From NCBI GenBank assembly GCA_038883795.1, contig JAVZLK010000002.1, forward strand, positions 96,001 to 160,000: a stretch of 64,000 bases of DNA, written 5' to 3'. Each line of letters opens with the position of its first letter. Position 1 is the stretch's first letter. Below, piece by piece: positions 6,395 through 63,046 of this stretch. The notes beneath the pieces are model-generated. The model was not told the DNA's origin and did no database searches. It saw only the letters and a list, made by a program, of their open reading frames with translations. This DNA is from Candidatus Bathyarchaeia archaeon. Its GTDB lineage: Archaea > Thermoproteota > Bathyarchaeia > Bathyarchaeales > Bathycorpusculaceae. Made by a program: the position numbers and the translations under genes.

Positions 6395-6537
6395 AACATA
6401 TAAAAATTAGTGATGAAAACTACAAAGAACTCATAAAAATCATCGGACTACTACAGGTCAAAGAAAAAAGAAGAGTGACTATAGATGATGCAATAGATTT
6501 TCTTCTTCAGAAGGTGAAAGTAGATGAACAACAATAA
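6388..6537 (+). CDS. Small ribbon-helix-helix (CopG/VapB-like) regulator
   Basis: Manual translation MTKHIKISDENYKELIKIIGLLQVKEKRRVTIDDAIDFLLQKVKVDEQQ (49 aa); overlaps the MTase start; below the ORF-track cutoff. Confidence 0.75.
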   Translation: MTKHIKISDENYKELIKIIGLLQVKEKRRVTIDDAIDFLLQKVKVDEQQ

Positions 6538-7432
6538 GAACTCCCTTTATCCCGAACGTGTTTTGTCAGAGATCTTAAAGTCAAGAGAAATAGAACTGCC
6601 AAGGACTCGGCACAAGATTGTAATTGGTGACAGCAGACATATGGATGAAGTAGCAAACGAATCAGTGCATTTAATAGTTACATCGCCTCCTTACCCAATG
6701 ATAGATATATGGGACGGCTTATTCAAAAAATTAGGATGTAAAACCTTTAATGACATGCATGATTATTTAGCTGACGTTTGGGCGGAATGTAAACGAGTTC
6801 TAGTTAACGGCGGAATTGCTTGTATAAATATCGGGGATGCCCTACGAAAAGTTAACGGCGTCTTTAGACTTTTTCCAAATCATGCAGAAGTCATTAAAAG
6901 ATTTGAGGAACTCGGATTTGTAACATTGCCAAATATTCTTTGGAAAAAGCCTACGACTAAACCTAATTCTTTTCTTGGTTCTGGTTTCCTTCCAACCAAC
7001 GCTTATGTTACATTAGATTGCGAATATATACTGATTTTTAGAAAAGGTGGCGACCTGAGAAAGTTTCTTACAAAAGACCCATACAGATACGCCAGTTACT
7101 ATACAAAAGAGGAAAGAGATGTATGGTTTTCCCAAATTTGGGACATCAAAGGCGTTAAGCAAGAATCCAACGAAGTTGAAAGAAGAGTAGCAGCTTACCC
7201 AGACGAAATTCCTTATAGATTACTAAGAATGTTTTCGATAATAGGTGATACCGTTTTAGATCCATTCTTAGGAACAGGCACAACAACTAAAGTTGCCATG
7301 AACCTTCACAGAAATAGCATAGGCTATGAGATAGATGAAAAAATGCTAACTCTAATAAAGAAGAAAATCGGTTACCAGCAGAGATTGTTCGAACCACATA
7401 AATTTGAAATCGAAATAATTAAGAAGCATTAA
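6524..7432 (+). CDS. Beta-class amino DNA methyltransferase (probably N4-cytosine)
   Basis: Motif IV TSPPY precedes motif I VLDPFLGTGTT. Confidence 0.93.
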   Translation: MNNNKNSLYPERVLSEILKSREIELPRTRHKIVIGDSRHMDEVANESVHLIVTSPPYPMIDIWDGLFKKLGCKTFNDMHDYLADVWAECKRVLVNGGIACINIGDALRKVNGVFRLFPNHAEVIKRFEELGFVTLPNILWKKPTTKPNSFLGSGFLPTNAYVTLDCEYILIFRKGGDLRKFLTKDPYRYASYYTKEERDVWFSQIWDIKGVKQESNEVERRVAAYPDEIPYRLLRMFSIIGDTVLDPFLGTGTTTKVAMNLHRNSIGYEIDEKMLTLIKKKIGYQQRLFEPHKFEIEIIKKH

Positions 7433-7470
7433 TTAAAAAATACTATTAACAAATATGGAAAGAGGCGACA

Positions 7471-7749
7471 ATGATGAGTAAACTTGTAAGAATAGAGCAT
7501 ACATTAAGAAGATGGGAGAAAAAGTATGGCTACATAGGGCTTTCTCTTGAACAAGAGCGTGATTTGTTTTCTGAAGTTAAGGATAAACGTTTTACATTGA
7601 AATTTTTAGGAAAAACTTTATTGGAACGGAAAATCGACGATAGCTGGCGCATATATGTTGGGTCCAGAGTTATGGAAGATTTAAAAGTTGATGACGTTTT
7701 GACAATTTACCAAGACAAAGACGGAAATTACTACGTTGAAAGAAAATAA
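7471..7749 (+). CDS. Hypothetical protein, possible DNA-binding pseudobarrel/AbrB-like fold
   Basis: 92 aa with EKKYGYIGL and RKIDDSWRIYVG...LKVDDVLTI beta-rich pattern; SD-like GAGG upstream. Confidence 0.6.
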   Translation: MMSKLVRIEHTLRRWEKKYGYIGLSLEQERDLFSEVKDKRFTLKFLGKTLLERKIDDSWRIYVGSRVMEDLKVDDVLTIYQDKDGNYYVERK

Positions 7750-7752
7750 ATA

Positions 7753-8352
7753 TTATTGCTCAAACTCAAACTCTATACCATCTTCTGTTTTTCTGTAGTA
7801 AACAATCTTTGCTGCTATCTTTTCCCCCAAGCGACCCTTTTCAATTTTATAAGTTTCTGGTTTAATAGAGACTGGTGTATCACCAATGAATCCATCGATT
7901 CCTTGTGCTTCTTCATCTGGCGTCGCCAATCTGTAGTTTTTCCTCAAGGTTGAAGCAATTCTTTTTAGCACAAGCTCTTGAAAACGCAGTCCAATAAAAG
8001 TTTTAACCAACACCAAATCTTCAACCCATTCTCTCACTATATTTTCATCGATTTTATCCATAACATTTTTAAATTCTTCTAACTTTTTAACTATTTTCTT
8101 TGTCGCCCGATCTATTGCATTTGGCATCACAGCCAAATACCATTTTTTCCATCCTTCAAATGTCTTGTAAGGACATTTTTGAATTAACTCACTCATCTGT
8201 CCAACAACTTCTGGTCGTGTTGCACCAGAAAAGCGATTTGCCAAATTTAAAATAGGAGAAACGTAAGTAGGAAAAACCTTCGACTCGCCAATTAGTTCAG
8301 TCCTGAGTTCGTCATTTTTAAGTTTAAATTTCATTTCGTTCACACTTTGCAA
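7753..8352 (-). CDS. Type II restriction endonuclease, MjaI/MthZI family
   Basis: ATRPEVVGQMSELIQ and EEAQGIDGFIGDTPVSIKP (PD-(D/E)XK variant); convergent on an SPPY MTase. Confidence 0.8.
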   Translation of the reverse strand: MQSVNEMKFKLKNDELRTELIGESKVFPTYVSPILNLANRFSGATRPEVVGQMSELIQKCPYKTFEGWKKWYLAVMPNAIDRATKKIVKKLEEFKNVMDKIDENIVREWVEDLVLVKTFIGLRFQELVLKRIASTLRKNYRLATPDEEAQGIDGFIGDTPVSIKPETYKIEKGRLGEKIAAKIVYYRKTEDGIEFEFEQ

Positions 8353-8398
8353 ATGTGCTTTGTATATAAACTTGATAAAAAACTTTCGGGCAGAGCAA

Positions 8399-9517
8399 TC
8401 AATTTCTGAAAAAGGTTGTAAGCTCAGAGTTGGGAATAAACTTATGGAAGATTAAGCATTTATCAGACAGCGTATATCTAATAAGTTCCAGATTTGTTGG
8501 TTTATTTTCTTGTAAAAATTTCACAGCATCGCTTGAGAATTCTTTTGCACATAGGTAACCATATACTTTGCTTAAATTGTTTTCACAGAGAAACTCTGCT
8601 ATCCAAACCATATACTTGACAAGTTGGTTAATATGCTCAAAAGACGCTTCTTTAGTTTTTAACTCTATGATCTTATATATTCTGCAATCGTTTCTTTCCA
8701 GAAAACCAAAGACATCCATGAATTTTATGTAGAAAGAGCGAATGGTATTAGCAATGAAGCTAAAATCTCCAAAGATATTTTTAATATTTTCATGCGCCTT
8801 TAAATCCTCTGGCTCAAAGGCATTAGCCATAATCCACGCTTCCATTAATTTTTCATCTCTAACAAGACCATTAATAGGAACCAAAGGCAATTCTATCTTT
8901 TTAAAATTGGACAAATTTTTTGAAAATACACTCGAATTAGAAGGCCCTTTTGGATTATTCTTTCGAAGCAGTTCAATCAGTTTTTTACCCTCTTCAGGTA
9001 ATAGTGGTCTGACAGTTTTTTCTTTATCTTCATACTTCCATCTTTCTGGGATAGTCCATATGCCTTTACAAAGATCTTTTAACTTAAAAACTTCATTTGC
9101 ATCAAAACCTTCATCAAAATAGAGACCCTCATCAGATTTAATAGAAATTTGCCAAAGAAAGTCGCTTTCAGACAAGGAAGGTAACTTTTTATTAACCAAT
9201 TTTTCTTTTAATAAATTACTACTTCTAAATTCCTCAGGGATTGAAGGATTTTCCAGAAATGTGCTTTCAGCTCTAAAGGCACCAAAAATTTTTTGTTCAC
9301 CTTTCACATGTATAAAAATTTGATCATCTTTCTTCACCCTTTTTAGATCAGCGAATATATCATAAATAGTAGCAAGCAAAGCATTTAATTCTGCAATACT
9401 AAGCGATTTTTGTTTTGTATTCCTATAGTATTTTTTGGGAAGACGGACGCCTATATATCCTTCTCTAAGAAATTGTAAAAATGTTGATTTATTATCTACG
9501 CTTATTATATGCGGCAT
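8399..9517 (-). CDS. EVE/PUA-like domain + NucS-like PD-(D/E)XK nuclease (putative modification-dependent restriction enzyme)
   Basis: N-terminal LKRVKKDDQIFIHVKG..IFGAFRAES (EVE-like); C-terminal EKLMEAWI...MDVF...IIELK...INQLVKY (NucS/Mrr-like). Confidence 0.7.
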   Translation of the reverse strand: MPHIISVDNKSTFLQFLREGYIGVRLPKKYYRNTKQKSLSIAELNALLATIYDIFADLKRVKKDDQIFIHVKGEQKIFGAFRAESTFLENPSIPEEFRSSNLLKEKLVNKKLPSLSESDFLWQISIKSDEGLYFDEGFDANEVFKLKDLCKGIWTIPERWKYEDKEKTVRPLLPEEGKKLIELLRKNNPKGPSNSSVFSKNLSNFKKIELPLVPINGLVRDEKLMEAWIMANAFEPEDLKAHENIKNIFGDFSFIANTIRSFYIKFMDVFGFLERNDCRIYKIIELKTKEASFEHINQLVKYMVWIAEFLCENNLSKVYGYLCAKEFSSDAVKFLQENKPTNLELIRYTLSDKCLIFHKFIPNSELTTFFRN

Positions 9518-9703
9518 AACTTACTAAGATAAGATCATACTCTCACACTCAATAAAAGATTTATGTTAGGAGCCATCAATGTTGGAACAATTCAAAATCC
9601 TGAAATTTGAACTTGTGTTTAGAGGTCATATTCTCGACATCTCTTTGTATGATTCTGTCAAAATCTGGCAAAAAAGACTACTCAATGTTGTGAAAATTTA
9701 AAA

Positions 9704-9773
9704 TTCTGTTTTCCGTTTTTCGATTTTCGGTTTTCCGTATTTCGTTTTTCGGTTTTTCCGAGTTGCGTTTTTT
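9704..9773 (+). repeat. Tandem 22-bp repeat built of TTTT(C)CG subunits
   Basis: TTTTCCGTTTTTCGATTTTCGG (9709-9730) and TTTTCCGTATTTCGTTTTTCGG (9731-9752), 20/22 identical, plus a degenerate third copy. Confidence 0.75.
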
Positions 9774-9791
9774 ATTAAACGTTTATATATA
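9772..9791 (+). promoter_or_regulatory. Archaeal TATA box for the RHH-nuclease operon
   Basis: TTTATATATA at 9782-9791, about 30 nt before the 83 aa ORF. Confidence 0.55.
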
Positions 9792-9819
9792 ATCCGTTTC
9801 GTTAACTAAGCGAAAAAAG

Positions 9820-10071
9820 TTGATAATAATGAGCGAAAAAGAGAAAAATCCAAAAGCCTGCCCATTATTGGTTAGCGATAACCCTAAGGACATTAAAAAG
9901 CTGAAACTTGAAAAAGGACAATGCCCAATTCCACCTATCCTTATGAATGCAAAACTTAGCAATATCGCCGAGACGGCTGGCGTTTCCGTTGAGCGAATGT
10001 TTGAAGCTTTGGTTAACATCACAATAGAAGAGTTGTGCTCAAAAGGTTTACTTAATCTGGTGAGAAAATGA
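9820..10071 (+). CDS. Small protein with RHH-like C-terminal half
   Basis: PIPPILMNAKLSNIAETAGVSVERMFEALV fits a beta-helix-G-x-S-helix pattern; ATGA overlap with the next gene. Confidence 0.6.
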   Translation: MIIMSEKEKNPKACPLLVSDNPKDIKKLKLEKGQCPIPPILMNAKLSNIAETAGVSVERMFEALVNITIEELCSKGLLNLVRK

Positions 10072-10712
10072 TGATAACTATTCATTGGCGAACAGTCCGT
10101 AAAATCTGGCGTGAATTAGCTGGTAAAAAACCTTCTCCTCAAACAAGGCATATATCGATTAACGGGCATGATGTTGTTGAAGTAATATTTACAGAAGAGC
10201 AAGCAAATGTAGTTATCGAAAGAGCTGACATAAAAGGCACAGATGCTATTAAAAAAGGTAAAAAGGGACCTATTGTTACTTTAAACCCGATGCATTTAAA
10301 TAGAGTTGGTTTCTTAGGACAAGTTGCATTTTATATATACGCTTTCGCTGATTTTAAAAAAGGTTTAGAATTAATTAAAATAGGGTATCAACCAGATATC
10401 ACCGATGTAGTTTTTAAGGGTTACCAGATTGATATAAAGACTCGTTCTAAACATTGGCATGATTGGCTTATGGTTCCAGAATTTCAATTTAAGAATAAAT
10501 TACACGATTTTTACGTTGGTTGTAGGCTTATGAGAGAAAATCCGTATATTATTCAAATATGGGGTTATGCAACTCGCAAAGAATTAGAAGAAGTTGAACC
10601 TTCCGATAAGTGGGGATATGATTTAACCAGAGCGATACCGTTTAAAAATCTTCACCCCGTTATTGAATTAAGAGATTTACGAATTAAAAAACCTCTTCAA
10701 TCATTCTTTTAA
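10068..10712 (+). CDS. Putative PD-(D/E)XK restriction-fold nuclease
   Basis: GFLGQVAF helix, then PDITDVVFKGYQIDIKT (D...D-x-K), DFYVGC and IWGYAT strands. Confidence 0.7.
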   Translation: MMITIHWRTVRKIWRELAGKKPSPQTRHISINGHDVVEVIFTEEQANVVIERADIKGTDAIKKGKKGPIVTLNPMHLNRVGFLGQVAFYIYAFADFKKGLELIKIGYQPDITDVVFKGYQIDIKTRSKHWHDWLMVPEFQFKNKLHDFYVGCRLMRENPYIIQIWGYATRKELEEVEPSDKWGYDLTRAIPFKNLHPVIELRDLRIKKPLQSFF

Positions 10713-11645
10713 ATCTCAACCTGATTCGTAATTAGCGTTTAAATCTCGTGTTCAGTGCATCAACTTTTCGCTCGATAAGTTACCCTTCACCTCGGTTAAG
10801 AATAACCTCGTAAAATCGTGATGCACTAAACACAACATTTAAACGCTGATTTAAAAAAGCAACGAGATTTAGTGGCACGATTCGGTGCAATGTCTCTTCG
10901 CTTCACATGCTAGAGGATAGGTATAGCGGAAAACTCGACTCACGCTAATACGTATCTCCTAACCGATGAAACAAAGAGACATTGAATTGTTTCAACCTTT
11001 CTACCTCGAGAGAATAGGTCTGCGAAAATCTGCGTCTTAACGTGCCCTATATCCTACCGAGGTTGAAAGGTAGAAACGATAGTGCAAAGACTCTGTGTTT
11101 CTGTCGTCGGAGGCGTATAGTCAGTTCGGGAGGCAGTCCGGAGCAGCACCTATCCCCTAGGCGCAGAAACACAGAGACATTGCAGATTTACCCGATGCAC
11201 AATTTGAATACATAAAATTGAAAAATTGGTTCTCGTTTAAGAAAAATTCTGCTCACCCTATAACGCCTTTTTCTTTTTCCTTAATTGAAAATAAGCCTAT
11301 TAAGGATGAAGCACAGTTTTTCTTAAACGAGCTTCAATTTTTCAATTTTACAAAATGGGATAATACATGGAATTAGAACTTTAGTGGGTTATATCGCTTA
11401 AAGTTTGAGATTTTGAGATTTAGACTTTATAGCAGAATTTCGGGAAGGAAGAGATAGTAAGTTAGTTTAAAAGTTATCACTTTTGAAGAGGGTATATCTC
11501 TCCCTACGGTTTTTGCTATTAGACCCTAAATCTCAAAATATTGAATGTTGAATTGCGGGAAAATTTTTGCGCAAAAGCATGATAAACGCAGAATTATCAA
11601 GCGTTTAGGCACGGTTTGTTCGCTGATTTTTTAAGATTTTTCCGC
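10710..11645 (+). ncRNA. Array of 7 long imperfect hairpins plus 1 short one; putative structured ncRNA or ssDNA hairpin array
   Basis: Inverted-repeat units 10730-10851, 10888-10984, 10986-11080, 11083-11184, 11213-11350, 11377-11406 (short), 11410-11539, 11555-11645; no ORF; strand inferred from the upstream operon and uncertain. Confidence 0.65.
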
Positions 11646-11757
11646 CAAAAGAGTATACCGCACAAAAACAATCAACAAGCTAAGATTATGGAACATAATT
11701 AATTAGGAGGTATAATCGAATCACCGTCCGCTATAACGAAATTTTTTGGGTGCGAAG

Positions 11758-13026
11758 TTACCGTTTTACGATAACCTCGCCATTTGAAAGCCTGTGAACG
11801 ATTTGCCAGCCAGCTTTAAGATATTGCAGAAGTTGGCTTTCGGGAATCTGTTCAAAAGTTTCGTTTAAACCCGCTCCATCTGGGTTCGTGTCGCTTTCCT
11901 TCATTAAATCTTCGAATTCTTTCTCCGTCATCCAGCGTTTCGCACGGTGACCGTATAAAGTCATTAATTCAGCGAAGAATCGTTTGCGTTCTTCAGCGTT
12001 TAAAGTTTCCATTCTGGCTTTTATTTCGGCTTTAAGCAGTTCGTCATGTTCAGGTTTCGGCTGTAAATCAATTAAGTGGTAAGCCTTTGCGTATATGTCT
12101 CTTTGAATGTTTTCAGAGGGAATTACGTAGCGGCTTTCAATGTCGCTCATTTTCAATTTATGTCCCATCCAATAACGCAATATTATGGGGTGCCTAATTT
12201 CTAAAGCCATATACGTTTCAAACAGCTTTCTTATTCGATGCGGTGAAGCTTTAACGCCGACTTTTTCGCCGAGCCTTTCCACTATTTTCGAAAGACAATC
12301 TAAACCGAGTTTTTCGTAAGGTTTTCTGTTGCTTACGGTTAATGGTGTATTATCGTTTATCGTTTCGCCCCGTTTACGCCTTAAATCCAAATATAACCTT
12401 AAAACTTCAATGGCGTTTGGTCCAAGCCAAGTTTCATATCGCACCTGTTCTTTACGCCTGATAACGTGTATGTGTATGAATTGTTCGCCTTTTTCAAAAT
12501 CTCGTTTTATGTCGCCGTAAGTTAATTCGATAAAATCTTCTCTGCTCATGCCTGAATCTTTTAAGCCTCGAATTATCCACCTTTGCTGAACAGTTGCGAC
12601 GTTATCTATTTTCTTAAATTCTTCAATCGTTAAAGGTTTAAGACCTTCAATAATGCCTACGCTCGGTGTTCCTATGTCCAATTTTATTCGACAGTTATAT
12701 TTGATTAGGCTTTTTACGGTTGCGTGAACGCTTGAGGCTACGTTTTTGGTGAAACCTCTGTTTTTGACAAGCCAATTTACGAATAAGTCAAGTTTAACAT
12801 CCCAATCTTCTAAGGCTTTGTCTAAATCCGCTTTTGCCTCAGTTTCCCATTTAGCCACCGTTTCATCAGGGTTTAACCCGCTGAATTCATGCCAAAGCAT
12901 AAGATTTCGTGAATAAATGCGTTCGGTTCTTTTGCTTCCGCTTTTCTTTGCTGCAAGCCTTTCAAATAATCTTTGAACGGTTTTAAACTGTTTCGCCCAC
13001 TTTTCATATTTGCTTTCGCTTTCCAT
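11758..13026 (-). CDS. Tyrosine recombinase/integrase
   Basis: SGMSREDF (box I, atypical), RRKEQ, HRIRK, WMGH, SRY catalytic pattern; C-terminal YLKAGWQIV...GEVIVKR tail seen in archaeal integrases. Confidence 0.9.
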   Translation of the reverse strand: MESESKYEKWAKQFKTVQRLFERLAAKKSGSKRTERIYSRNLMLWHEFSGLNPDETVAKWETEAKADLDKALEDWDVKLDLFVNWLVKNRGFTKNVASSVHATVKSLIKYNCRIKLDIGTPSVGIIEGLKPLTIEEFKKIDNVATVQQRWIIRGLKDSGMSREDFIELTYGDIKRDFEKGEQFIHIHVIRRKEQVRYETWLGPNAIEVLRLYLDLRRKRGETINDNTPLTVSNRKPYEKLGLDCLSKIVERLGEKVGVKASPHRIRKLFETYMALEIRHPIILRYWMGHKLKMSDIESRYVIPSENIQRDIYAKAYHLIDLQPKPEHDELLKAEIKARMETLNAEERKRFFAELMTLYGHRAKRWMTEKEFEDLMKESDTNPDGAGLNETFEQIPESQLLQYLKAGWQIVHRLSNGEVIVKR

Positions 13027-52622: not shown

Positions 52623-54110
52623 ATGGGTTGTGGCGTATTTGGAGCAATAAACTTCGAAGAACAGCCCATATTCCCATACATTTACTGGGGCATGAGAGCC
52701 CAAAACCACAGAGGTCACCAATCCCATGGCTTCCTAACCTTTGATAATGGAAAATTTCATGTGCACAGAAGCTTAGACCTAATACCAAAAATAAAGACAA
52801 GCGCCATCCAAGAATGGTTTGGACGTTTGCCTGGGCGCATGGGTATAGCAAATGTTAGGTATACCACTTCTGGAAAATGTGATGAAAAATCCCTTATAAA
52901 GGGCACTCAACCAGTTACCGCTTCAAAAAATGGGTTTTCGGTGGCTGTTTCTTTTAATGGTAATGTTGTTAACGTATTCCAGGTTAAAGAGGAAATAAGC
53001 AAATATTTTCCAAAATTTTCTTACGAATGCGATGCCGACCTTGTTTCTCATAAACTCCTAATCGAATTATTGAAAAAGAAAGATATTGCGTCAGCAGTAA
53101 AAACGTGCATGGAAGAAATTGAAGGAGCCTTTTCCGTGGCGTGCATAACAAAGAATGGCGAGTTCTTCGCCTTCAAAGACCCAAATGGCATCAGACCATT
53201 ATGTGCCGGGCACAGCGAAGACAGAACAACTTACGCTTTCTCCTCAGAAACTGTAGGCTTAGACATAAACGGCTTCAAAAAAGCCTTTGAAATTGAGCCA
53301 GGCGAACTTGTAACAGTTTCAAAAGATGGGTTTCAAAGGGAGAAATTGGTGAATGGTAGATGCAAGGCTTTCTGTGCTTTCGAATTTGCATATTTCGCCA
53401 GACCAGACTCATGCTTTGATAACAAATATGTTTATGAAGTTAGAGAAGAGTTTGGAAGAAACCTTGTTAGAGAAAATCCAGAGATAGCCAAAAACGCAGA
53501 CATAGTCATATCCATCCCAGAAACAGGCGACGACGCAGCCTTCGGAGTTCATGAAGAGTCTGGCTTAAAATGGGAAAGGGCTTCACGAAGGCACCGTTTT
53601 GTAACAGAAAGAGCCTTTATACTACTGAATAGGGAGCGTTATGCGACCATAGACCGCAAAATTAACATTATAGCCTCTAAAGTTAATGGAAAACGAGTCA
53701 TAGTAACCGAAGACAGCATAGTACGCGGCGACACAACAAAAATAGTAATAGAAAAACTTCGCAGAATGGGCGCGAAGAAGGTTTACATGTTTGTAACTTT
53801 CCCACGCATAATTGGACCATGCTTCTATGGAATAGACATGGCAACATACGGTCAACTAATAGGCTCAAAGCATACGGCGGAAGAAATAGCAAAAATAATT
53901 GGCGCGGATGCCGTCTGCTACCAATCAATAGAAGGTTTCATAAAAGCCACTGGTTTCCGCAGCGACCAACTTTGTTTGGCATGCGTAACTGGCAAATATC
54001 CTACGCCGCTAGCGCAAAAAATTGCGGATGAGATTAAAAAGAAGTTCCTTGAAGGCTACGAGGAACAAGGGAGACTTTACGAAATATCTGAGGCTTTCCA
54101 AAAAGCCTAA
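52623..54110 (+). CDS. purF: Amidophosphoribosyltransferase
   Basis: CGVFG, HRGHQS, RYTTSG, CAFEFAYFARPDS, DSIVRG, PCFYGIDM, CLAC. Confidence 0.95.
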   Translation: MGCGVFGAINFEEQPIFPYIYWGMRAQNHRGHQSHGFLTFDNGKFHVHRSLDLIPKIKTSAIQEWFGRLPGRMGIANVRYTTSGKCDEKSLIKGTQPVTASKNGFSVAVSFNGNVVNVFQVKEEISKYFPKFSYECDADLVSHKLLIELLKKKDIASAVKTCMEEIEGAFSVACITKNGEFFAFKDPNGIRPLCAGHSEDRTTYAFSSETVGLDINGFKKAFEIEPGELVTVSKDGFQREKLVNGRCKAFCAFEFAYFARPDSCFDNKYVYEVREEFGRNLVRENPEIAKNADIVISIPETGDDAAFGVHEESGLKWERASRRHRFVTERAFILLNRERYATIDRKINIIASKVNGKRVIVTEDSIVRGDTTKIVIEKLRRMGAKKVYMFVTFPRIIGPCFYGIDMATYGQLIGSKHTAEEIAKIIGADAVCYQSIEGFIKATGFRSDQLCLACVTGKYPTPLAQKIADEIKKKFLEGYEEQGRLYEISEAFQKA

Positions 54111-54165: not shown

Positions 54166-55575
54166 ATGGAGAAAGTTGGCATCCTCGTTGTTTCTTACGG
54201 AGCAAGAGAATCCGCCATAATAGACGCTTTCGCACGAAGCACAAATTATGATGTGAAAGTTTTTGTTGTTGATAAACAACGCAACCCCTTCAACGTCAAA
54301 AAGGCAACTAAGCATGTTGTTGTTCCAGATTTGAACGTGGAGGAAATATGCAAATTCGCAGAAAACAATAAGGACGAAATTGACTTTGGCATAGTTGGAC
54401 CAGAAAAACCCATAATCGACGGCGTCCGCGACCTTGTAGAAAAGCGAACGGGCATACCCATCATTTGTCCAAAAAAGCAATACGCTATAGAAGCAAGCAA
54501 AGTGCAACAGCGTCTACTATTCCAAAAAATTGTGCCAGAAGTGAATCCACGCTTCAAAATTTTCAACCCAAAAGATTACAAAACCCAAGAAGAAGCGAAA
54601 AAAGCTGTTTACAAATGGCTGGACGAACTTGAAAATAGGGCTGTCGTTAAACCAGACCAGCCAGCGGCCGGAAAAGGCGTAGGCGTATGGGGAGACCACT
54701 TCACGACACGTGAGCAGTTGTTCGAGCATTTTATGGCAAATTTCCAGCATGGAGCAGTAATAATCGAAGAGAAAATTGAGGGCGAAGAATCAAGTTTTCA
54801 AGCTTTCTGCGACGGCAAACACTTGGTGCCTTTACCAGAAACCAGGGATTATAAGCGAGCCTTCGACGATGACAAGGGTCCAAACACTGGCGGTATGGGT
54901 TCCTATAAGGATGTTAGCGATGTTTTGCCTTTCATGACCGCTGCTGATAGGGCTAAAGAAGTTGAAATTGTTAAGCGAATCTTTGAAAAGTGGAACATTA
55001 AAGATGGTGATAGCCTAAGAGGCATTCCATTTTACGTGGCTTTTATGCACACGGGCAAGGAACCGAAAATCCTTGAAAACAACAGCAGACCAGGCGACCC
55101 AGAAATAATCAACATTTTACCAATTTTGAAAGATGATTTTGTCGACATATGCTTCAAAATTTTGGAAGGAAACCTAACAAAAATCGAATTAGAAAAGGCT
55201 GCAACAGTTGTCACCTATAAGGTTCCGCCAAACTACGGCGGATACATAGACGCTTTTCCAAAACTTGTAGACAAAAACGAAATTGGCGCACCAGTCGACC
55301 TAACAAGGGCTTACGAACTAACCAAAAAATATGGCGAAAAAATCCGCATCTATCCAGCCTCCATGGAACTTCGCAACAGCGAAACTTACGCCCTTAAATC
55401 AAGAGCTGTGGGTGTTGTGGGCATAGGCGACGACATAGAAACTGCTAGAAAAATTTCTCTTGAGGGCATAAAAGCCATTAAAGGCGGAGCACTGTGGCAT
55501 AGAAAAGACATAGCCTCTAAAAAGCATATAGAAAAAAGCATTAGACATATGGAGAGGCTGAGGCTTAAAAAGTGA
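54166..55575 (+). CDS. purD: Phosphoribosylamine-glycine ligase
   Basis: GARE, VGPE, AAGKGV, DYKRAFDDDKGPNTGGMGSY. Confidence 0.93.
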   Translation: MEKVGILVVSYGARESAIIDAFARSTNYDVKVFVVDKQRNPFNVKKATKHVVVPDLNVEEICKFAENNKDEIDFGIVGPEKPIIDGVRDLVEKRTGIPIICPKKQYAIEASKVQQRLLFQKIVPEVNPRFKIFNPKDYKTQEEAKKAVYKWLDELENRAVVKPDQPAAGKGVGVWGDHFTTREQLFEHFMANFQHGAVIIEEKIEGEESSFQAFCDGKHLVPLPETRDYKRAFDDDKGPNTGGMGSYKDVSDVLPFMTAADRAKEVEIVKRIFEKWNIKDGDSLRGIPFYVAFMHTGKEPKILENNSRPGDPEIINILPILKDDFVDICFKILEGNLTKIELEKAATVVTYKVPPNYGGYIDAFPKLVDKNEIGAPVDLTRAYELTKKYGEKIRIYPASMELRNSETYALKSRAVGVVGIGDDIETARKISLEGIKAIKGGALWHRKDIASKKHIEKSIRHMERLRLKK

Positions 55576-56654
55576 AGAGAGTTTTCATATCGGACTGTGA
55601 AGGGCCAATCTCAAAAAATGATAATGCCTTCGAAATAACATCCCATTACGTTCCTAACGGAGACAAACTCTTTGCGGTTATAAGCAAATATGATGATGTT
55701 TTGGCAGAAGTCCTAAAAAGACCAAATTATAAGGCTGGAGATACTTTAAAGCTTATTTTGCCCTTCTTAAAGGCTTATGATGTCACAGACGCTAAAATGC
55801 GGGAATTTTCTGCTAAGAGCCTACTTTTAATTGCTAACGTGAAGGATACTCTATCGTATGTGAGAAATATAACCAATGCCTTTATTGTCAGCACAAGCTA
55901 CCAGCATTACATAGAAGCCTTATGCCAAGCCCTAAATTTTCCATACGAAAACACTTATTGTACAAAGCTTCGCCTCGACAAATACTCCATAACGGAGAAG
56001 GAAAGAAGCGAACTGAAAGAATTGGCAAAGGAAATTGTTAAGATGCCTTTAATCGAGATTCCTCCAAAGGCAAAAGCTCCAAGCGACTTCTCCAAAAGAG
56101 ACCAAGAACTAATTGGTCGGCTTGACGAAATTTTCTGGAGCATCATCGCTAAAATGGAGATTGGCAAAATTTTCTCCGAAGTTAATCCAGTTGGGGGCAG
56201 CGAGAAAGCCGAAGCAGTGAAAAACGCGGCTAAAAAGGTTGGTGCGGAACTGGCGGATGTGATGTATGTTGGCGACAGCATAACGGATGTTGAAGTCTTT
56301 CGGCTTGTGAAAGAAAATGGTGGCTTAGCCGTTTCTTTCAATGGTAACGAGTATGCCATAAGAAATGCCGAAGTTGCTATTTTGTCGGAAAGCAGCATAG
56401 CCACAGCAGTAATTGCAGAATTGTTTAGCAATTTTGGAAAAGAACAAACACTAAAAATTGTCAAAAATTGGAGTAGTGAAACACTAAAGACAGCGCTTAC
56501 AAATCAAACATTGCTTAACAAACTTTTTAGTTTGTATCCTAAAAAATTGCCTAAAGTTAAAATAATAACAAAAGAGAATATGGATGCTCTGGCAAAAGAA
56601 AGTAGCGAATTCCGGAAAAAGGTTAGAGGCGAAGCCATAGGAAGACTGGGATAA
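55572..56654 (+). CDS. HAD-superfamily hydrolase (EhaR-like)
   Basis: [14 protein letters not shown] motif I, VSTSY, K, VGDSITD, SFNGN. Confidence 0.8.
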
Positions 56655-57565
56655 TGGTAAAAAAAGCTGAAGTGGAAGATACTTATGCAGAGGCTTTCGA
56701 AGGAATCTTCTCTAGAATAATTGTTACAGCTGATGACGAAGAAACATTGCGAAAAGCTGCTGAGGATGCCACGGCAACGCCATCGATAGTTATTGGCAGA
56801 GTTGAAGGCGGAATAGAAAAATGGCTAAGCGAAAAGGAAACTCCGGATAAGCGTGAAGGCGCTTTGCTCCAGTTTTGGGGTGGAATAGACCCGAAAAAGC
56901 CCTTTTCAGAATCCCTAAAAAAATTTGAAGTTGAGCTTTCTTATAGAATTCGCCAGGACATTCTTGTTAAGCCTTTTACAGCAGTTTTTGACGTAACACC
57001 AAAGGCTGAAGGAAAAATTGACATGATGGAGCGTGTTGGACACTGCGGAGACGGTTATGAGTGGGTTGAAAAACGCTTTGGGCGTGAGGTTATTGTTGTT
57101 CCCATAATGGTTCCAGATTTCATTATCGAGCGCTATATAGGCTATGCCCGTGGAGTTATGGGCGCAAACTTTTGGGTTATGTGCAAAACAAAACAAGCCC
57201 TAAAAAGGGCTGGAGAAAAAGCCTTAGAGGCGATTCACAAAATTGAGGGTGTAATAACGCCTTTTGACGTGTGCAGTGCTGGTTCCAAGCCCGAAACAAG
57301 TTTTCCATGGATTGGACCAACAACAAACCATCCCTACTGCCCATCCCTAAAAAAGAAGTTGGGCAAAGAATCAAAGGTTCCAGAAGGCGTCAACTATATT
57401 CCAGAAATCGTGATTAATGGCGTTTCGCTTGATGTCGTGAAAAGGGCTATGCGGGCTGGCATGGAAGCCGTATTAGAAGTGGATGGCGTGGTTAAGGTTT
57501 CAGCTGGAAATTATAGCGGAAAACTTGGCGATTATAAGATTTACTTGCGTGAGCTGTTTTCATGA
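56654..57565 (+). CDS. Formylmethanofuran-H4MPT formyltransferase-like protein (divergent Ftr paralogue, EhaS-like)
   Basis: [42 protein letters not shown]; [10 protein letters not shown] and [10 protein letters not shown] replace canonical Ftr TSVIMCPAE and RIGQCVMTAP. Confidence 0.85.
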
Positions 57566-58476
57566 ACCGCTTTGACGTGGTAGGATTCGGCGCCTTAAAC
57601 GTTGACAAACTGTTTAAGGTAAACAAAATAGCTGGGGCTGAAGAAGAAGGCTTCATCATAGACTGCCAAGAATGGTGCGGAGGCTCAGCAGCAAACACCA
57701 CCGTAGGTTTGGCAAGGCTCGGCTGCAAAGTAGGCTTTATAGGAAAAGTAGCCAACGATAGGGAAGGAAAAATGCTAGTAGAAGATTTTCAAAAGGAGGG
57801 CGTCGACACAAACGGCATAATCTATGCCAAAAATGGCAGAAGCGGAACAGTTATGGGTTTCGTAGATCAAAAGGGCGAACGGGCATTATACGTGGACCCA
57901 GGCGTGAACGACACAATAGAGTTTAACGAAATAAACAAGCATTACGCTTTTAACACGCAATTTTTGCATTTAACCTCTTTTGTTGGAGAAAAATCCTTCC
58001 AAACCCAAAAGAAGCTTGTGGAAATGTTGCCAGAAAATGTTAAGGTAAGCCTTGACCCAGGCGAATTATACGCCAGAAAAGGATTAGCGGCATTAGAGCC
58101 CATAATAAAGCGTGCTTTTGTTTTAATGCCAAACCAAAGAGAACTCGAACTCCTAACCAAAACCAAAGATTACAAGAAAGGCGCTGAGATTTTGCTCGAA
58201 AAGGGCGTTAAAATAATTGCGGTAAAACTTGGCAATAAGGGCTGTTACGTTACCAATGGAAAGGAAAACCACCAAATAAACCGTTTTAACGTAAAAGTTG
58301 TGGACACAACAGGCGCTGGCGATGCCTTTTGTGCTGGTTTTCTTTATGGTATTATTAATGGTAAAAGTTTGTATGAGTGTGGAAAACTTGGCAATTTTGT
58401 AGCGTCAAGATGCATAATGAAAATGGGCGCCAGAACAGGGCTTCCGCGCATTGAAGAATTAGAACTTCTTCGTTAA
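57562..58476 (+). CDS. PfkB/ribokinase-family kinase
   Basis: [16 protein letters not shown]. Confidence 0.92.
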
Positions 58477-59277
58477 ATATTCAATTAAGCTTTCAAAGAT
58501 TAGTTTTCCATCGCCGTATTGTGGCATTTGCTTTTGTCTTGTCCAGTCTGGTTGTTGCCACCAATAGAATGCTCTTTCTGGATGCGGCATCAAACCAAAT
58601 ACTGTTCCTTCGGGGTTGCATATTCCAGCTATGTCATGGAAAGAGCCGTTTGGGTTTGTTGGAAAACGACCCTCAGCATATTCGCCATTTTTATCGCAAT
58701 AACGGAAGACTAGCTGGTCATTTTCGTAAAGCTTTTTCAGAAACTCCTTTTCCTTTTCTTTTGCAAACATGAATCTGCCCTCTGAATGGGCAACAGGAAC
58801 TCGCAAAACTTTTCCATGCGGAATCTTCCAAGTAAATGCACATTTTCCCTTATTTTCGTGCCTAATGTAAATCCATCGGCAGTTATATCCAGGCGGAAAA
58901 TTAGTTGCCAAAACTGCCTCTGGATATGGGCTTATTTCATCAAATCCTGGAAGAAAACCAGCCTCCACAAGCACTTGAAAGCCATTACAAATGCCAAGGA
59001 TTAAACGGTTTTCGTCTACAAAGGCTTTAAGCTCCTTGCCCAATTTAGCCATTATCCACTTCGCCCATATGGCGCCAGCCCGCACATAATCCCCATAAGA
59101 GAAGCCTCCCGGAAAAACCAGAACGTGATACTCCAAAAGGTTTCCATGTTTAACCAGTTCATTTGCATGTACGATTTCAGCGTTGACGTCTAACTCTTCA
59201 AAAGCCCGTTTTGTTTCTGCGTCGCAGTTTGTTCCGCCAACTCTTAAAACGCAGACTTTAATCTCTTCTCGCTTCAT
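58459..59277 (-). CDS. purQ: FGAM synthase glutaminase subunit
   Basis: GTNCD, PGGFSYGDY, GICNGFQ, MPHPER. Confidence 0.97.
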   Translation of the reverse strand: MKREEIKVCVLRVGGTNCDAETKRAFEELDVNAEIVHANELVKHGNLLEYHVLVFPGGFSYGDYVRAGAIWAKWIMAKLGKELKAFVDENRLILGICNGFQVLVEAGFLPGFDEISPYPEAVLATNFPPGYNCRWIYIRHENKGKCAFTWKIPHGKVLRVPVAHSEGRFMFAKEKEKEFLKKLYENDQLVFRYCDKNGEYAEGRFPTNPNGSFHDIAGICNPEGTVFGLMPHPERAFYWWQQPDWTRQKQMPQYGDGKLIFESLIEYLTKKF

Positions 59278-61661
59278 GTCCTAAACCCGCTGCTTAGGGT
59301 TCTTTTCCAACTTGTCAACAAATCTTTCAGCGAGGCATCGACAACAACTTCATTGTTTAATCCGTAAACGCATAACCTTGGAACTTTTGTGACCTTTCCT
59401 ACTTCAGCATATGCCACACTTTTAAACAATGCTTCAAACTCTTCCTTTGCCTTTTGCGAAACTTCCATCAAAAAGCGACTGTTCGACTCAGAAAACAGAA
59501 TGAAATCATTACGATTCAAATTTTCTCTCGGAACCTTCTGCAAATGTAATTCCATTCCATATCCACCAGCAAAAGCCATCTCCGCCGCCGCCACGCCTAA
59601 ACCTCCCTCTGATAAATCATGGCAAGCCTTAACCAACCCTAAATCAATAGCTTTGGTAATTGCCCTAAAAGTTTTCTTGGCTTGTTTTGCCCGAACTTTC
59701 GGCACAGCATTTCCAACAAAACCCTTAAGCCTATAATATTCAGAACCGCCCAACTCGTTATAGGTTTGTCCAACAATGTAGATTAAGTCGCCGATATCCT
59801 TGACATCCATGGACACAACCAAACGGACATCTGGAACAATGCCCAAAGCAGTAATTAAAAGCGTTGGCGTAACCGTTCCAAGCGGAGACTCATTGTAGAG
59901 ACTGTCCTTTCCAGAAATGAATGGTGTCTTAAAAGCGGTTGCAAAATCATAACAAGCCTCACAAGCCCTAACGAGACTGCCAAGAATTTCGGGCTTTTCC
60001 GGACTGCCCCACGTGAAATTGTCAAGTAAGGCTATTCTTCTTCCGCCAACAGACACATTATTCCTTATAGCTTCATCTATGGCTGAGGCAGTCATCCAAT
60101 AAACATCAATTTTTCCATAATTCGGATTCATCCCACAAGAAATGACTAAACCTTTCCACGAATCCGCTAACGGTTTGAGAACGGCAGCATCGTTGGGTCC
60201 AGAAAACTCGCCATGCAAGGGCTTAAGCAGAGTGTTTCCTTTTACCTCATGGTCATATGTGCGTATTACGCTTTCTTTGCTTGCAATGTTAGGCGATGAC
60301 AAAAGGTGCATAAGCGTTTCAGTCAAGTTTTCTGGTTCTTGAAAGGATGGCTCTTCAAAAATTTTCGGCTTATATTCTGCGGTTCTTACAACTTTAGGTG
60401 GTTCGAATAGAAATGGAATGTCTATTTCGGCAACTTTTTCGCCTTCATAATAAAGCCTTAAAACTTCATCCGACGTGTATTTTCCAATAGCATTAGCTTC
60501 CACATCCTCGTCCCTAAAAACTTCTAAAACTTTCTCCAAATTTTCTGGAGGAACAGCCAAAAGCATTCTCTCTTGGGATTCGGAAACGTAAATTTCCCAA
60601 GGAGCCAAACCAGGATATTTTAATGGAACCTTATCCAACTCAATAAAAGCGCCGCAACCAAATCGTTTTGCTGTTTCGCCAACCGCCGATGATAAGCCTC
60701 CTCCGCCCAAATCTGTTATTGCAGAAGCAAGCTCGAAATCTCGAATCCTAATTATCGCCCTTTTCAGCTTTTCCTCCTCGATGGGATTTGCAATTTGAAC
60801 TGCCGGTCTTGAAACTTCCTCTGACTTTTCTGTTAATACGGCTGATGCAAAGGTTACGCCGTGAATGCCATCTCGCCCGGTTCTTCCGCCAGCCAAAACT
60901 ATAACATCGTCTGGTTTAGCGTTTCTCCTAAACTTTTTCAATGGAAGCAATCCAACGCATCCGCAGTAAACAACCACATTCCCAACATAACTTTCATCAA
61001 AATATGTGGCGCCGTTAACCGTTGGAATGCCCATGTTATTGCCATAACTTCCAATACCAGCAACAACTCCCATGTAAACATACTTTGGATGCTTAACGCC
61101 AGAAGGAAGCCTTTCATAATCAAAATTCAACGGACCAAAACCCAGAACATCCATACACGCTATGGGGTCAGCCCAAACTCCCAAAACATCCCGAATTACA
61201 CCACCAACTCCGGTGGCTGCACCTCCAAAAGGTTCCACGGCTGATGGATGATTGTGAGTTTCAACCTTAACCGCCACTCCGTAACCCTTGTCAAAACGGA
61301 TTATACCCGCGTTATCCTCAAAAATGGAAAAACACCATTTTGGCTTAATTTCATCGGTTGCCTTTGCAATGTAGGTTCTAAAAAGGCTTTCAATCTCCTT
61401 CCCATCGAATTTTATCTTACCCTTGAAAGTCTTGTGGAAACAGTGCTCAGACCATGTCTGCCCAATAGTTTGAAGTTCCACATCTGTTGGGTTTCTTCCT
61501 TTTCGCCTAAAATATTCTTGAATGCTCTTCATTTCTTGCAAATTTAAGCCTATGCCAAGTTCGCTGCTTATTTCCAAAAGCTGTTTTTCAGAAGCCTCTA
61601 AGACGTTGATTTCGAAAAGTGGAAAGGAAGTTTTTCTGCGAATGTAAAGGTTCACATTCAT
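59274..61661 (-). CDS. purL: FGAM synthase subunit PurL
   Basis: WSEHCFHK, KVETHNHPS, SESQERM, DLSEGG. Confidence 0.97.
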   Translation of the reverse strand: MNVNLYIRRKTSFPLFEINVLEASEKQLLEISSELGIGLNLQEMKSIQEYFRRKGRNPTDVELQTIGQTWSEHCFHKTFKGKIKFDGKEIESLFRTYIAKATDEIKPKWCFSIFEDNAGIIRFDKGYGVAVKVETHNHPSAVEPFGGAATGVGGVIRDVLGVWADPIACMDVLGFGPLNFDYERLPSGVKHPKYVYMGVVAGIGSYGNNMGIPTVNGATYFDESYVGNVVVYCGCVGLLPLKKFRRNAKPDDVIVLAGGRTGRDGIHGVTFASAVLTEKSEEVSRPAVQIANPIEEEKLKRAIIRIRDFELASAITDLGGGGLSSAVGETAKRFGCGAFIELDKVPLKYPGLAPWEIYVSESQERMLLAVPPENLEKVLEVFRDEDVEANAIGKYTSDEVLRLYYEGEKVAEIDIPFLFEPPKVVRTAEYKPKIFEEPSFQEPENLTETLMHLLSSPNIASKESVIRTYDHEVKGNTLLKPLHGEFSGPNDAAVLKPLADSWKGLVISCGMNPNYGKIDVYWMTASAIDEAIRNNVSVGGRRIALLDNFTWGSPEKPEILGSLVRACEACYDFATAFKTPFISGKDSLYNESPLGTVTPTLLITALGIVPDVRLVVSMDVKDIGDLIYIVGQTYNELGGSEYYRLKGFVGNAVPKVRAKQAKKTFRAITKAIDLGLVKACHDLSEGGLGVAAAEMAFAGGYGMELHLQKVPRENLNRNDFILFSESNSRFLMEVSQKAKEEFEALFKSVAYAEVGKVTKVPRLCVYGLNNEVVVDASLKDLLTSWKRTLSSGFRT

Positions 61662-61909
61662 CTTTCTTCCTCAACCACAATCACATAATCATCCTTAGTT
61701 GGATTAGCCAAAAGCCTCCTACACATCTCATCAGCCTTCGCATCAGCCTCCCTTCTCGATTCAGCTTCAAGAATTACGGTGTAAACCTTGCTGACATTTA
61801 CAGTTTCAACTTTATAACCAAGTTCTTTCAGCAAATATGCTGTGGTCTCCCCTTCTGGGTCGCTATGTCCAGGCTTCAATTTTACTTCAATTTTTAAGCG
61901 GTATTTCAT
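61658..61909 (-). CDS. purS: FGAM synthase subunit PurS
   Basis: LKPGHSDPEG, LLANP. Confidence 0.95.
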   Translation of the reverse strand: MKYRLKIEVKLKPGHSDPEGETTAYLLKELGYKVETVNVSKVYTVILEAESRREADAKADEMCRRLLANPTKDDYVIVVEEER

Positions 61910-61969
61910 AGGCTAAGTTTGAGTTTTAAGAGATTTAAACGCTTTTATCAGCAAAAAGGCAAAATCATC

Positions 61970-63046
61970 TCAAAAAATTTTCTTACCCTTATAAAGAATT
62001 CTAATTCCTTTAGAATCCGTTACATGCCCTATAGGCTCAGCTTCTGCCCCATTCCTCTCCAAGACATCTACCGCCTTGTCCACATCCTTTTCGTCAACTA
62101 TAACCGCAAAACCCCACCCCATATTAAACGTCTTAAACATCTCCTCATCCGTAATTTTTCCACCTAATTCTGAAGCAGTTTTCTGAATTAGCTCAAAAAT
62201 AGGCTGCGGCTTAAAATTGTTAAATTCAAAACCTATCCCCTTAGAAAACCTTGTCAGTCTATCAAATTTTAAATACGCATCGCCAGTTATGTGAACCGCA
62301 GCCTTAACCCTAACCTCTTCTGCAACCCTAAGCAAAGGCTTAACATAAATCTTAGTAGGCTCAAGAACTTCGTAAACAATTTCCCTACTCAATCCGTCTG
62401 GAACGTCGTAAGGTTCATATTTTCCACCCCAACGCTTAAAAAGAACCTTCCTCGCCAAAGAAACGCCATTACTATGAATTCCAGAACTTCTCAAGCCGAC
62501 AATAACATCGCCAGCCTTTATGTCTCTTCCATAAATTATTTTTTCGCTAGAAACCAGCCCAATGGCTGCCACAACCAAATCAAAGCCTTTACCCTTTACC
62601 AAACCTTTAACTATTTCAGCGACATCACCAATTTCCCCACTCGGCACAACACATCCAGCTTCAACAGCCCCTTTGGCTATTCCTTTCAATAATTCCTCAA
62701 TTAAGCTTGGATCAGAGACTTGAGCATGAATGTTATCTGCAACCGCTAAGGGTTTAGCCCCGGACCTAATAACATCATTAACAGCAACAGCAACACCATC
62801 AACTCCGATAGTATCAAACTTTTCAGCCAACTGCGCAACAAGAACCTTAGTGCCCACACCTTCGATAACCAAATCCAAAAAACAATCTTTTCCTATAGGA
62901 AAAATGTTCCCATAAGGAAGCTCAACAACCCCACCATAACAACTAAACCCATAAGTTTCCCTTAAAATCCTCAAAGCCCTCTTAGATTCTGATCTAAGTT
63001 TTCTGTTAACCCCAGCCCTAGCATAAGTAAATTCCCGAGGCAACAC
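61970..63046 (-). CDS. purM: AIR synthase
   Basis: TYARAGV, EGVGTK, SSGIHSNG, HITG, TFNMG. Confidence 0.95.
   Translation of the reverse strand: MLPREFTYARAGVNRKLRSESKRALRILRETYGFSCYGGVVELPYGNIFPIGKDCFLDLVIEGVGTKVLVAQLAEKFDTIGVDGVAVAVNDVIRSGAKPLAVADNIHAQVSDPSLIEELLKGIAKGAVEAGCVVPSGEIGDVAEIVKGLVKGKGFDLVVAAIGLVSSEKIIYGRDIKAGDVIVGLRSSGIHSNGVSLARKVLFKRWGGKYEPYDVPDGLSREIVYEVLEPTKIYVKPLLRVAEEVRVKAAVHITGDAYLKFDRLTRFSKGIGFEFNNFKPQPIFELIQKTASELGGKITDEEMFKTFNMGWGFAVIVDEKDVDKAVDVLERNGAEAEPIGHVTDSKGIRILYKGKKIF

Follow-up and report, generated by a model that had tools for sequence, protein, structure and literature searches.

An EhaR/S/T-like gene trio in the purine operons of Bathyarchaeia and Asgard archaea as a candidate module for glycinamide ribonucleotide formylation

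How is glycinamide ribonucleotide (GAR) converted to formylglycinamide ribonucleotide (FGAR), step 3 of purine synthesis, in an archaeon whose purine operon holds neither PurN nor PurT? The question is raised by a stretch of 64,000 nucleotides from a Candidatus Bathyarchaeia archaeon (GCA_038883795.1, contig JAVZLK010000002.1, positions 96,001 to 160,000, forward strand; hereafter the window), in which purF and purD are followed by three genes that encode a HAD-superfamily protein, a paralogue (here Ftr2) of formylmethanofuran:tetrahydromethanopterin formyltransferase (Ftr) and a PfkB-family kinase. From sequence comparison and gene order across two archaeal phyla, we give about an even chance to the reading that this trio is a step-3 module, in which Ftr2 would be the formyltransferase, supplied from the one-carbon pool bound to tetrahydromethanopterin (H4MPT).

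We mapped the genes of the window by open reading frame (ORF) listing and by Pfam/NCBIfam scans, and the features that matter here are as follows:

52623-54110, plus strand: purF, amidophosphoribosyltransferase (step 1); TIGR01134 319 bits, below the 350 cut-off; GATase_7
54166-55575, plus strand: purD, GAR synthetase (step 2); GARS_N/A/C; TIGR00877 277 bits, below the 288 cut-off
55572-56654, plus strand: EhaR-like HAD-superfamily protein, 360 aa; Pfam HAD, Hydrolase_3 and Hydrolase
56654-57565, plus strand: Ftr2, Ftr paralogue, 303 aa; PF01913 152 bits, PF02741 192 bits
57562-58476, plus strand: EhaT-like PfkB-family kinase, 304 aa; PF00294 182 bits
58459-59277, minus strand: purQ (step 4, glutaminase subunit); GATase_5 232 bits
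59274-61661, minus strand: purL (step 4); AIRS, AIRS_C and FGAR-AT linker domains
61658-61909, minus strand: purS (step 4); PF02700 75 bits
61970-63046, minus strand: purM (step 5); AIRS and AIRS_C domains

The original prediction had described purF-purD followed by an overlap-coupled HAD gene, Ftr paralogue and PfkB gene, and we could read all three overlaps directly in the sequence: GTGA at 55572-55575 (purD stop and HAD start), TAATG at 56652-56656 (HAD and Ftr2) and ATGA at 57562-57565 (Ftr2 and PfkB). The ORF map and the Pfam/NCBIfam matches likewise bear out that the trio converges on purM-purS-purL-purQ (58459-63046, minus strand), with purQ sharing 18 nt with the 3' end of the PfkB gene, and that steps 1, 2, 4 and 5 are encoded in the window, from which PurN and PurT are absent. 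The translated N-terminus of purF, MGCGVFG, retains its Cys, and the neighbours of the trio are purD and purQ, not eha hydrogenase genes. This arrangement of the trio with purine genes is not due to chance. Among four sequencing runs compared with this DNA, the single genuine raw-read RNA run gave 0 reads and two runs that are probably DNA gave fragmentary contigs, which speaks neither for nor against transcription.

How far can the absence of PurN and PurT be trusted? The genome of the window (G000; 2.18 Mb, 81 contigs, 87% complete), whose placement in Bathyarchaeia is backed by the source names on near-identical homologues, agreed with the window when searched as a whole: it has no match to PF00551 (PurN), and for PurT nothing beyond one ATP-grasp match of 20 bits. 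PurP, AICARFT, PurE, PurC and Ftr1 (the canonical Ftr) were each searched for in the same incomplete genome and none was found; tblastn for further pur genes recovered PurB alone, which together with purF, D, L, S, Q and M makes up the pur genes present. G099, a relative, has PurP ~20 kb past HAD on one contig, a position that on G000 projects past the end of contig C2 (172,490 bases). Because purE, purC, purP and Ftr1 were not found either, the absences in this genome carry little weight, and our arguments from absence draw on relatives that are 90-100% complete, not on G000.

We surveyed 151 Bathyarchaeia genomes (G000 and 150 others, each of the others at least 80% complete) with profiles for HAD, Ftr, PF00551, PurT, purD and PurP, after dropping a partial HAD match (7.9e-5, G057). 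An apparent HAD + PurT case, G001, was also dropped from the PurT set, its gene being PurK, beside PurE. The 124 purD-positive genomes comprised 55 with HAD only, 49 with PF00551 only, 11 with a PurT-like gene only, six with HAD and PF00551, and three with none of these. Five of those six carry a divergent PurN and no Ftr2 (described below), and the sixth, G130, has a PurN-like protein with S-M-K instead of the catalytic N-x-H, the Asn and His thus missing. No PurT was found in any HAD-positive genome among the 151, and neither PurN nor PurT in any of the 20 genomes of family f1; family f11 by itself holds two genomes with HAD, seven with a PurT-like gene, one with PurN and one with none, and 20 of the 27 purD-negative genomes lack HAD, PF00551 and PurT alike. 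The original prediction had called for profiling the trio against the absence of purN and purT across archaea, and a match between the two held in part: the anticorrelation with canonical PurN/PurT is strict across the 124 purD-positive Bathyarchaeia, but it is not universal, as 12 of 24 purD-positive Asgard carriers also have canonical PurN.

PurN, PurT and the module share one slot after purD, which by coordinates is filled by PurN in at least 13 Bathyarchaeia genomes and by PurT in all three genomes of family f17 (locus L164 was read; NF006766 482 bits). In the 27 Ftr2-type loci of Bathyarchaeia (L008-L019, L025-L039), purD is beside HAD in 26 and Ftr2 directly beside HAD in 25; of the 15 loci that extend far enough to show it, 14 have PfkB directly next. 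Different families share the order purF-purD-HAD-Ftr2-PfkB, often with a convergent purM-S-L-Q block as in the window. Only pur-type genes are labelled beside the trio in related loci, most other neighbouring ORFs being unannotated. At least two Ftr matches were present in 53 of 64 HAD-positive versus 8 of 87 HAD-negative Bathyarchaeia; a single match was present in 57 HAD-negative genomes, and five HAD-positive genomes besides G000 showed one low-scoring match each, in the Ftr2 range (not all of these sequences were read). PurP was found in 56 of the 64 HAD-positive genomes, so step 9 is covered independently of the module. PurD itself scored 220-280 bits when HAD-linked versus 300-505 bits when linked to PurN or PurT; we set this aside as a lineage effect, HAD-linked PurDs of Asgard archaea reaching 425-453 bits.

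Is Ftr2 distinct from the housekeeping Ftr? It spans both Ftr lobes at full length (PF01913 at residues 3-151, PF02741 at 154-301), scores 349 bits against the subfamily model NF002554 (above the 297 cut-off), 232 bits against the equivalog model TIGR03119 (below the 292.6 cut-off) and 176-186 bits against the sequences of solved Ftr structures. Its E251 aligns with the Glu in YEIVING of 1FTR, which is kept in every Ftr1 and Ftr2 row, and which corresponds to a catalytic residue that we take to be Glu245 in Methanopyrus kandleri Ftr; passages of PMC6926001 give Glu252 as the catalytic glutamate of FhcD. Two Ftr matches are carried by 18 of the 20 genomes of the window's family, and in such two-Ftr relatives one copy (180-190 bits) is located elsewhere and the other (~150-158 bits; 154.7 for the window's copy in the same survey) directly adjoins HAD. 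The fetched sequences fell into an Ftr2 group, 54-100% identical to the window protein, and an Ftr1 group, 33-40% identical to it. In a quick maximum-likelihood tree, the 33 Ftr2 rows (Bathyarchaeia and Asgard) were split from 35 Ftr1/Ftr3 rows with a Shimodaira-Hasegawa-like approximate likelihood ratio test (SH-aLRT) value of 100. The two groups have 54 conserved positions in common, including the Glu aligned with the catalytic one, and the Ftr2 clade has 39 invariant positions unlike Ftr1 together with a 9-residue insertion; of its conserved cysteines, C207 and C229 are conserved in Ftr1 too, and C131 and C177 are specific to Ftr2. The gene is thus a true paralogue, as had been supposed, canonical Ftr1 also being present in most relatives.

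A third Ftr paralogue clade, Ftr3 (PF01913 123-131 bits, ~41% identity with Ftr1, SH-aLRT 100), occurs in the Bathyarchaeia genus g70 (L145-L148) and in Asgard archaea (L209, L210, L211, L217); its genes are linked neither to pur genes nor to HAD, and purD was not found in four of the five g70 genomes. At L030 (G001:C4, 3807-4885; a 0.9-Mb genome), Ftr2 lies in two overlapping ORFs of 270 aa and 92 aa, a split that is a frameshift or sequencing error, and PfkB-Ftr2 is there divergent from purD-HAD. A complex prediction with HAD as partner of Ftr2 and PfkB scored 0.00, in a run whose controls did not fold.

A pointer to what Ftr2 does comes from families f8 and f21, where we found an in-situ DISPLACEMENT with the order purF-purD-X-HAD-PfkB-FolD, without Ftr2. 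We read this variant whole in L020 (G034:C8, 2244-10093) and L021 (G028:C17); L022 (G124:C162) holds purF-purD-X, and HAD there is a 366-base fragment at the contig end. By coordinates, a divergent PurN stands beside purD in G002, G010 and G034 of f8 and in G028 and G124 of f21, with HAD and PfkB-FolD located elsewhere in G010 and G002 (L023, L024). X is this divergent PurN, a protein of 281-330 aa that bears an insertion and is extended at its C-terminus; it scores 51-75 bits against TIGR00639 (below the 150 cut-off) and retains the catalytic Asn-His-Asp motifs. Near its N-terminus the SG.G(S/T)N loop has become SGRD plus four residues; the loop is kept in all 13 other PurN-type rows that we aligned, among them E. 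coli PurN, in which it presumably binds the 5'-phosphate of GAR (a literature look-up did not confirm this). Ftr is matched just once in the f8/f21 genomes. L020 further holds AICARFT upstream, and the genomes of L020, L021 and L022 gave no match to PurP. The replacement of Ftr2, within one operon, by a PurN-type enzyme with FolD speaks for formyl transfer as the function of Ftr2 there, and since HAD and PfkB stay with either type of formyltransferase, the acceptor shared by both is a likelier target for them than the cofactor.

What could these two companions do? The HAD protein carries D8-C-E10-G-P (motif I, with Glu replacing Asp at +2), S107/T108, K212 and G234-D235-S-I-T-D239; the residues of motifs I-IV, with the Asp nucleophile, are invariant in the HAD alignment and form predicted phosphatase motifs, and a C-terminal tail, FRKxVRGEAIGxLG, is conserved. 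Homologues bear the Joint Genome Institute (JGI) name 'energy-converting hydrogenase A subunit R' (EhaR). The sequence matches PDB 1Y8A (AF1437) with E 1e-47, and its model (mean predicted local distance difference test, pLDDT, 94) aligns to that structure with template modelling (TM) scores of 0.81/0.93; next after 1Y8A come SerB-type phosphoserine phosphatases (TM about 0.45/0.75). The idea that HAD is a missing phosphoserine phosphatase is weakened by 11 HAD-positive Bathyarchaeia in which SerB above the TIGR00338 cut-off co-occurs with it. As a separate observation, a 604-aa ORF at L025 (G052:C1:1520000-1536000, 6393-8207) matches HAD over its last ~255 residues alone; it is possibly a fusion or a remnant, and its genome (closed-looking, 2.0 Mb) has no purD at E 1e-40.

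The kinase scores 177 bits against the ribokinase model TIGR02152, below the 299.65 cut-off, and its model (pLDDT 94) has TM 0.90 to E. coli ribokinase 1RKD. It keeps Asp16, Gly41-Gly42, Asn46 and the catalytic Asp255 (E. coli RbsK numbering). It has GGSAAN where ribokinase has GGKGAN, so that Lys43 is gone, and there is no Glu at the position aligned with Glu143; we take Lys43 and Glu143 to be ribose-contact residues of RbsK, although a literature look-up did not confirm it. Sequence similarity to 1TYY is weak (E 2.4e-12). This structure, like 1TZ3, is of the Salmonella aminoimidazole riboside kinase, which acts on a purine intermediate, as does adenosine kinase on aminoimidazole carboxamide (AICA) riboside; the module kinase shares the PfkB fold with such riboside kinases and, likewise, is without the ribokinase Lys43.

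Does the association hold outside Bathyarchaeia? Among the best 80 of 516 HAD relatives retrieved from genome contigs with the HAD alignment, one contig was labelled Thorarchaeota and the remaining ones Bathyarchaeia. That 3.6-kb contig (G151:C231; L063/L166/L167) encodes HAD-Ftr2 with ~65% identity to Bathyarchaeia family f1; since its Ftr2 nests within f1 in the tree, we take it for a probable binning contaminant. We searched 151 Asgard genomes, their identity taken from the source names on homologues, for HAD, Ftr, PurN, PurT and purD, dropping 11 genomes whose best HAD match had E 1.4e-7 to 6.4e-4. A 22-bit PF00551 match, in G206, was likewise left out of our counts. Strong HAD matches occurred in 26, and a second Ftr in 24 of these 26 versus 9 of the 125 HAD-negative genomes, with Ftr2 mostly unlinked to HAD. 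The 100 purD-positive genomes comprised 63 with PurN only, three with PurT, 12 with HAD only, 12 with HAD and canonical PurN, and 10 with none.

The Asgard loci fall into four types. Type 1 (L179, L180) reads purF-purD-HAD-Ftr2-PfkB-purL-purQ-purM. Type 2, with homologue source names of Odinarchaeia, reads purQ-purL-purF-purD-HAD-PfkB-purE in four of six loci; in L181 and L182 the search for purD came up empty. Four of the six continue with purM, and L185 alone yielded purB, purP and a glutamine amidotransferase. The Ftr2 of type 2 is encoded away from these loci, with 52-57% identity to the window protein (five of six genomes; that of G175 was not fetched). In type 3, purD is followed by a HEAT-repeat gene and then HAD, with Ftr2 unlinked (49-52% identical) and the best PfkB match also unlinked (41-44% identical to the type-2 kinase); the HEAT-repeat protein was read at L183 (7126-7611, 161 aa), and the other type-3 loci have a similar-sized gap between purD and HAD. 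Type 4, purL-purF-purD-Ftr2', has neither HAD nor PfkB. We read it in G174 (L212; G174:C1:151000-163000, 2471-11801), where Ftr2' has 342 aa with extra N-terminal residues and an M20 peptidase and an MFS transporter come next; by coordinates, G163 and G185 have a weak Ftr match of 94-95 bits at ~180 bases from purD, as in G174, and no PurN, PurT or HAD was found in these three genomes, which belong to the 10 with none. The link of the module to purine genes and the link of HAD to Ftr2 hold in this second phylum; exclusivity with PurN does not.

We reasoned from this context to a possible chemistry. Ftr2 may draw on the H4MPT-bound pool for a formyl group (carried by N5-formyl-H4MPT, or perhaps by formyl-methanofuran) and pass it to the aminomethyl amine of the glycinamide moiety, in GAR or its riboside. 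With less assurance, HAD and the ribokinase-like kinase may act where the acceptor bears its ribose 5'-phosphate: HAD would dephosphorylate GAR to the riboside, Ftr2 would formylate the riboside, and the kinase, with ATP, would rephosphorylate the product to FGAR for use by PurLQS, a last step that would pull a near-equilibrium formyl transfer forward. Such an ATP-driven riboside shunt, raised as a possibility in the original prediction, would be a third, non-homologous route to FGAR; it agrees with the data and gains a little indirect support, but it is speculative, and we hold it to be rather doubtful. It fits that the divergent PurN which keeps HAD-PfkB has lost the SG.G(S/T)N loop, and that the kinase retains general ribofuranose contacts and not the ribokinase-specific Lys.

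Several observations weigh against the broader assignment of the trio to step 3. Simple formyl transfer gives no reason for a phosphatase and a kinase to take part, the closest characterised structural relatives of HAD are phosphoserine phosphatases and not nucleotidases, and at least one lineage (type 4, L212) seems to manage with Ftr2' alone. Canonical PurN is present in 12 of the 24 purD-positive Asgard HAD carriers, full-length at 143-181 bits in 11 and as two contig-end fragments in G181; five PurN-positive type-3 loci with HAD near purD fall among them, and in these organisms the module is redundant or has another function. Our counts come from related genomes that are not independent, and so overstate the number of evolutionary events, and for Methanobacteriales, Archaeoglobi and Methanopyrus the evidence is from the literature alone. 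Finally, the separate canonical ftr that the original prediction had asked to be looked for exists in most relatives but not, as far as found, in G000, where Ftr2 is the sole Ftr found despite the presence of FwdA and Mch and might have a canonical role. Most likely the lack of Ftr1 is an assembly gap, because 18 of the 20 family members have two Ftrs and purE, purC and purP were not found in G000 either; most of what surrounds Ftr1 in relatives is missing from G000, though one neighbour is internal to contig C1.

Could the trio serve purine synthesis indirectly, another enzyme formylating GAR? HAD would then feed serine and glycine, the kinase ribose-5-phosphate and phosphoribosyl pyrophosphate (PRPP), and Ftr2 would be a formyl shuttle providing, for example, formate for PurP. 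The nearness of the HAD model to SerB-type enzymes (TM about 0.45/0.75) and of the kinase model to ribokinases (TM 0.90) would suit this, as would the 12 Asgard carriers with canonical PurN and the persistence of HAD-PfkB where a divergent PurN replaces Ftr2. However, precursor supply would not predict the complementarity with PurN/PurT among the 124 purD-positive Bathyarchaeia, 11 HAD-positive genomes already have SerB above its cut-off, the kinase lacks the ribokinase Lys43 and falls below the ribokinase cut-off, and PurT/PurP genomes need formate equally, yet are without the module; we consider this account unlikely. Still less can be said for Ftr2 as a second canonical formylmethanofuran:H4MPT isoenzyme of the Wood-Ljungdahl or methanogenesis pathway, with a meaningless location among pur genes. 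Both Ftr lobes are there, the NF002554 score is above cut-off, 54 positions (the catalytic-aligned Glu included) are common to Ftr1, Ftr2 is the only Ftr found in G000 beside FwdA and Mch, and five more HAD-positive Bathyarchaeia show just one low-scoring match in the Ftr2 range. Against this stand the separate clade (SH-aLRT 100) with its 39 differing invariant positions and 9-residue insertion, the linkage to purD and HAD kept across two phyla, the complementarity with PurN/PurT and displacement in situ by a PurN-type enzyme, and the Ftr1 also found in 18 of 20 family members, which together make an isoenzyme very improbable.

GAR might instead be formylated by an unrecognised enzyme, such as a tandem PurP-like ATP-grasp paralogue using formate, with the trio unrelated to step 3 and engaged, for example, in making or modifying a cofactor of the H4MPT or methanofuran type. 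To our knowledge, phosphatase and ribosyl steps of H4MPT biosynthesis have no assigned enzyme. Two tandem PurP-like genes do occur in many HAD-positive genomes, and the relevant sections of Brown 2011 (PMC3261824) describe PurP-like proteins of cluster Ib and cluster II (P. furiosus PF1517, PF0421) as being without aminoimidazole carboxamide ribonucleotide (AICAR) formyltransferase activity. Yet tandem PurP pairs are found in PurT or PurN genomes too (G005, G016, G068, G103, G060, G097), at least eight HAD-positive genomes have a single PurP match, and the H4MPT pathway appears to exist without HAD in the 57 HAD-negative Bathyarchaeia with one Ftr match; HAD-PfkB, moreover, accompany an H4MPT-type or a folate-type formyltransferase alike, which points to the acceptor side and not to the cofactor. 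We judge this alternative quite improbable, and return to the trio as a step-3 module for its nearest known systems.

Like Ftr2, the characterised Ftrs (EC 2.3.1.101; 1FTR, 2FHJ, 1M5H, 1M5S) belong to the two-lobe fold family with the catalytic-aligned Glu kept, and their natural acceptor is a primary amine of the aminomethyl kind, which in its chemistry resembles the glycinamide amine of GAR; unlike them, Ftr2 sits in a separate clade, is not orthologous with them and is encoded in purine operons, not among one-carbon-pathway genes. PurN (10-formyl-tetrahydrofolate) and PurT (formate/ATP) occupy the same slot after purD with a complementary distribution in Bathyarchaeia; they have no sequence or fold relation to Ftr2, which two extra proteins (HAD and the kinase, like Ftr2 of other folds than PurN and PurT) accompany, and they differ in donor, which for the module would be formyl bound to H4MPT or methanofuran. 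AF1437 of Archaeoglobus fulgidus (1Y8A, 'hypothetical protein') is a clear HAD homologue with the same D-x-E-G-P motif I. The window trio consists of the same three protein families as EhaR, EhaS and EhaT, which we take to close the eha (energy-converting hydrogenase A) operon of Methanothermobacter; unlike there, the genes are joined to purD and other pur genes in all Bathyarchaeia and Asgard loci that we inspected.

Published surveys also bear on the proposal. The statement in the original prediction that some H4MPT-using archaea lack PurN and PurT is matched by the survey text of Brown 2011 (PMC3261824), in which a GAR formyltransferase gene was not found in two Archaeoglobi and M. kandleri, nor in Methanothermobacter, Methanosphaera and two Methanobrevibacter, called Methanomicrobiales there. 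In the sections of Chadwick 2022 (PMC9012536) that treat them, Ftr2 paralogues are reported in anaerobic methanotrophic (ANME) lineages ANME-1 and ANME-2a/b, Archaeoglobales, M. kandleri and M. marburgensis, and, in another section, ANME-1, Archaeoglobales and Methanobacteriales are given as lacking both PurN and PurT; these sections leave the two facts unconnected. The labelling data cited in Brown 2011 (PMC3261824) have purine C8 coming from C2 of acetate in M. stadtmanae even with formate, and not so in M. smithii, and are called inconsistent in that section; we infer that both results fit a C8 drawn from the H4MPT pool. No paper assigning a function to Ftr2/EhaS was found, in a search that left subscription journals mostly outside.

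The gap that these genes may fill has stood since 2011: in the parts of Brown 2011 and Chadwick 2022 that concern it, Methanobacteriales, Archaeoglobi, Methanopyrus and ANME-1 are without a step-3 enzyme. Our analysis offers named genes for it, extends the proposal to Bathyarchaeia and Asgard archaea, and proposes a role both for the structure 1Y8A and for EhaR/S/T, which are orphan genes. Should the riboside shunt be real, it would be a direct link between purine synthesis and the methanogenic/Wood-Ljungdahl one-carbon pool, and would explain why the same genes stand at the end of the anaplerotic Eha hydrogenase operon in Methanobacteriales. If the trio is indeed a step-3 module, purine C8 in these organisms would come from the H4MPT-bound one-carbon pool, which would bear on carbon-flux models of methanogens, on the reading of isotope-labelling experiments and on folate-independent nucleotide synthesis in early metabolism.

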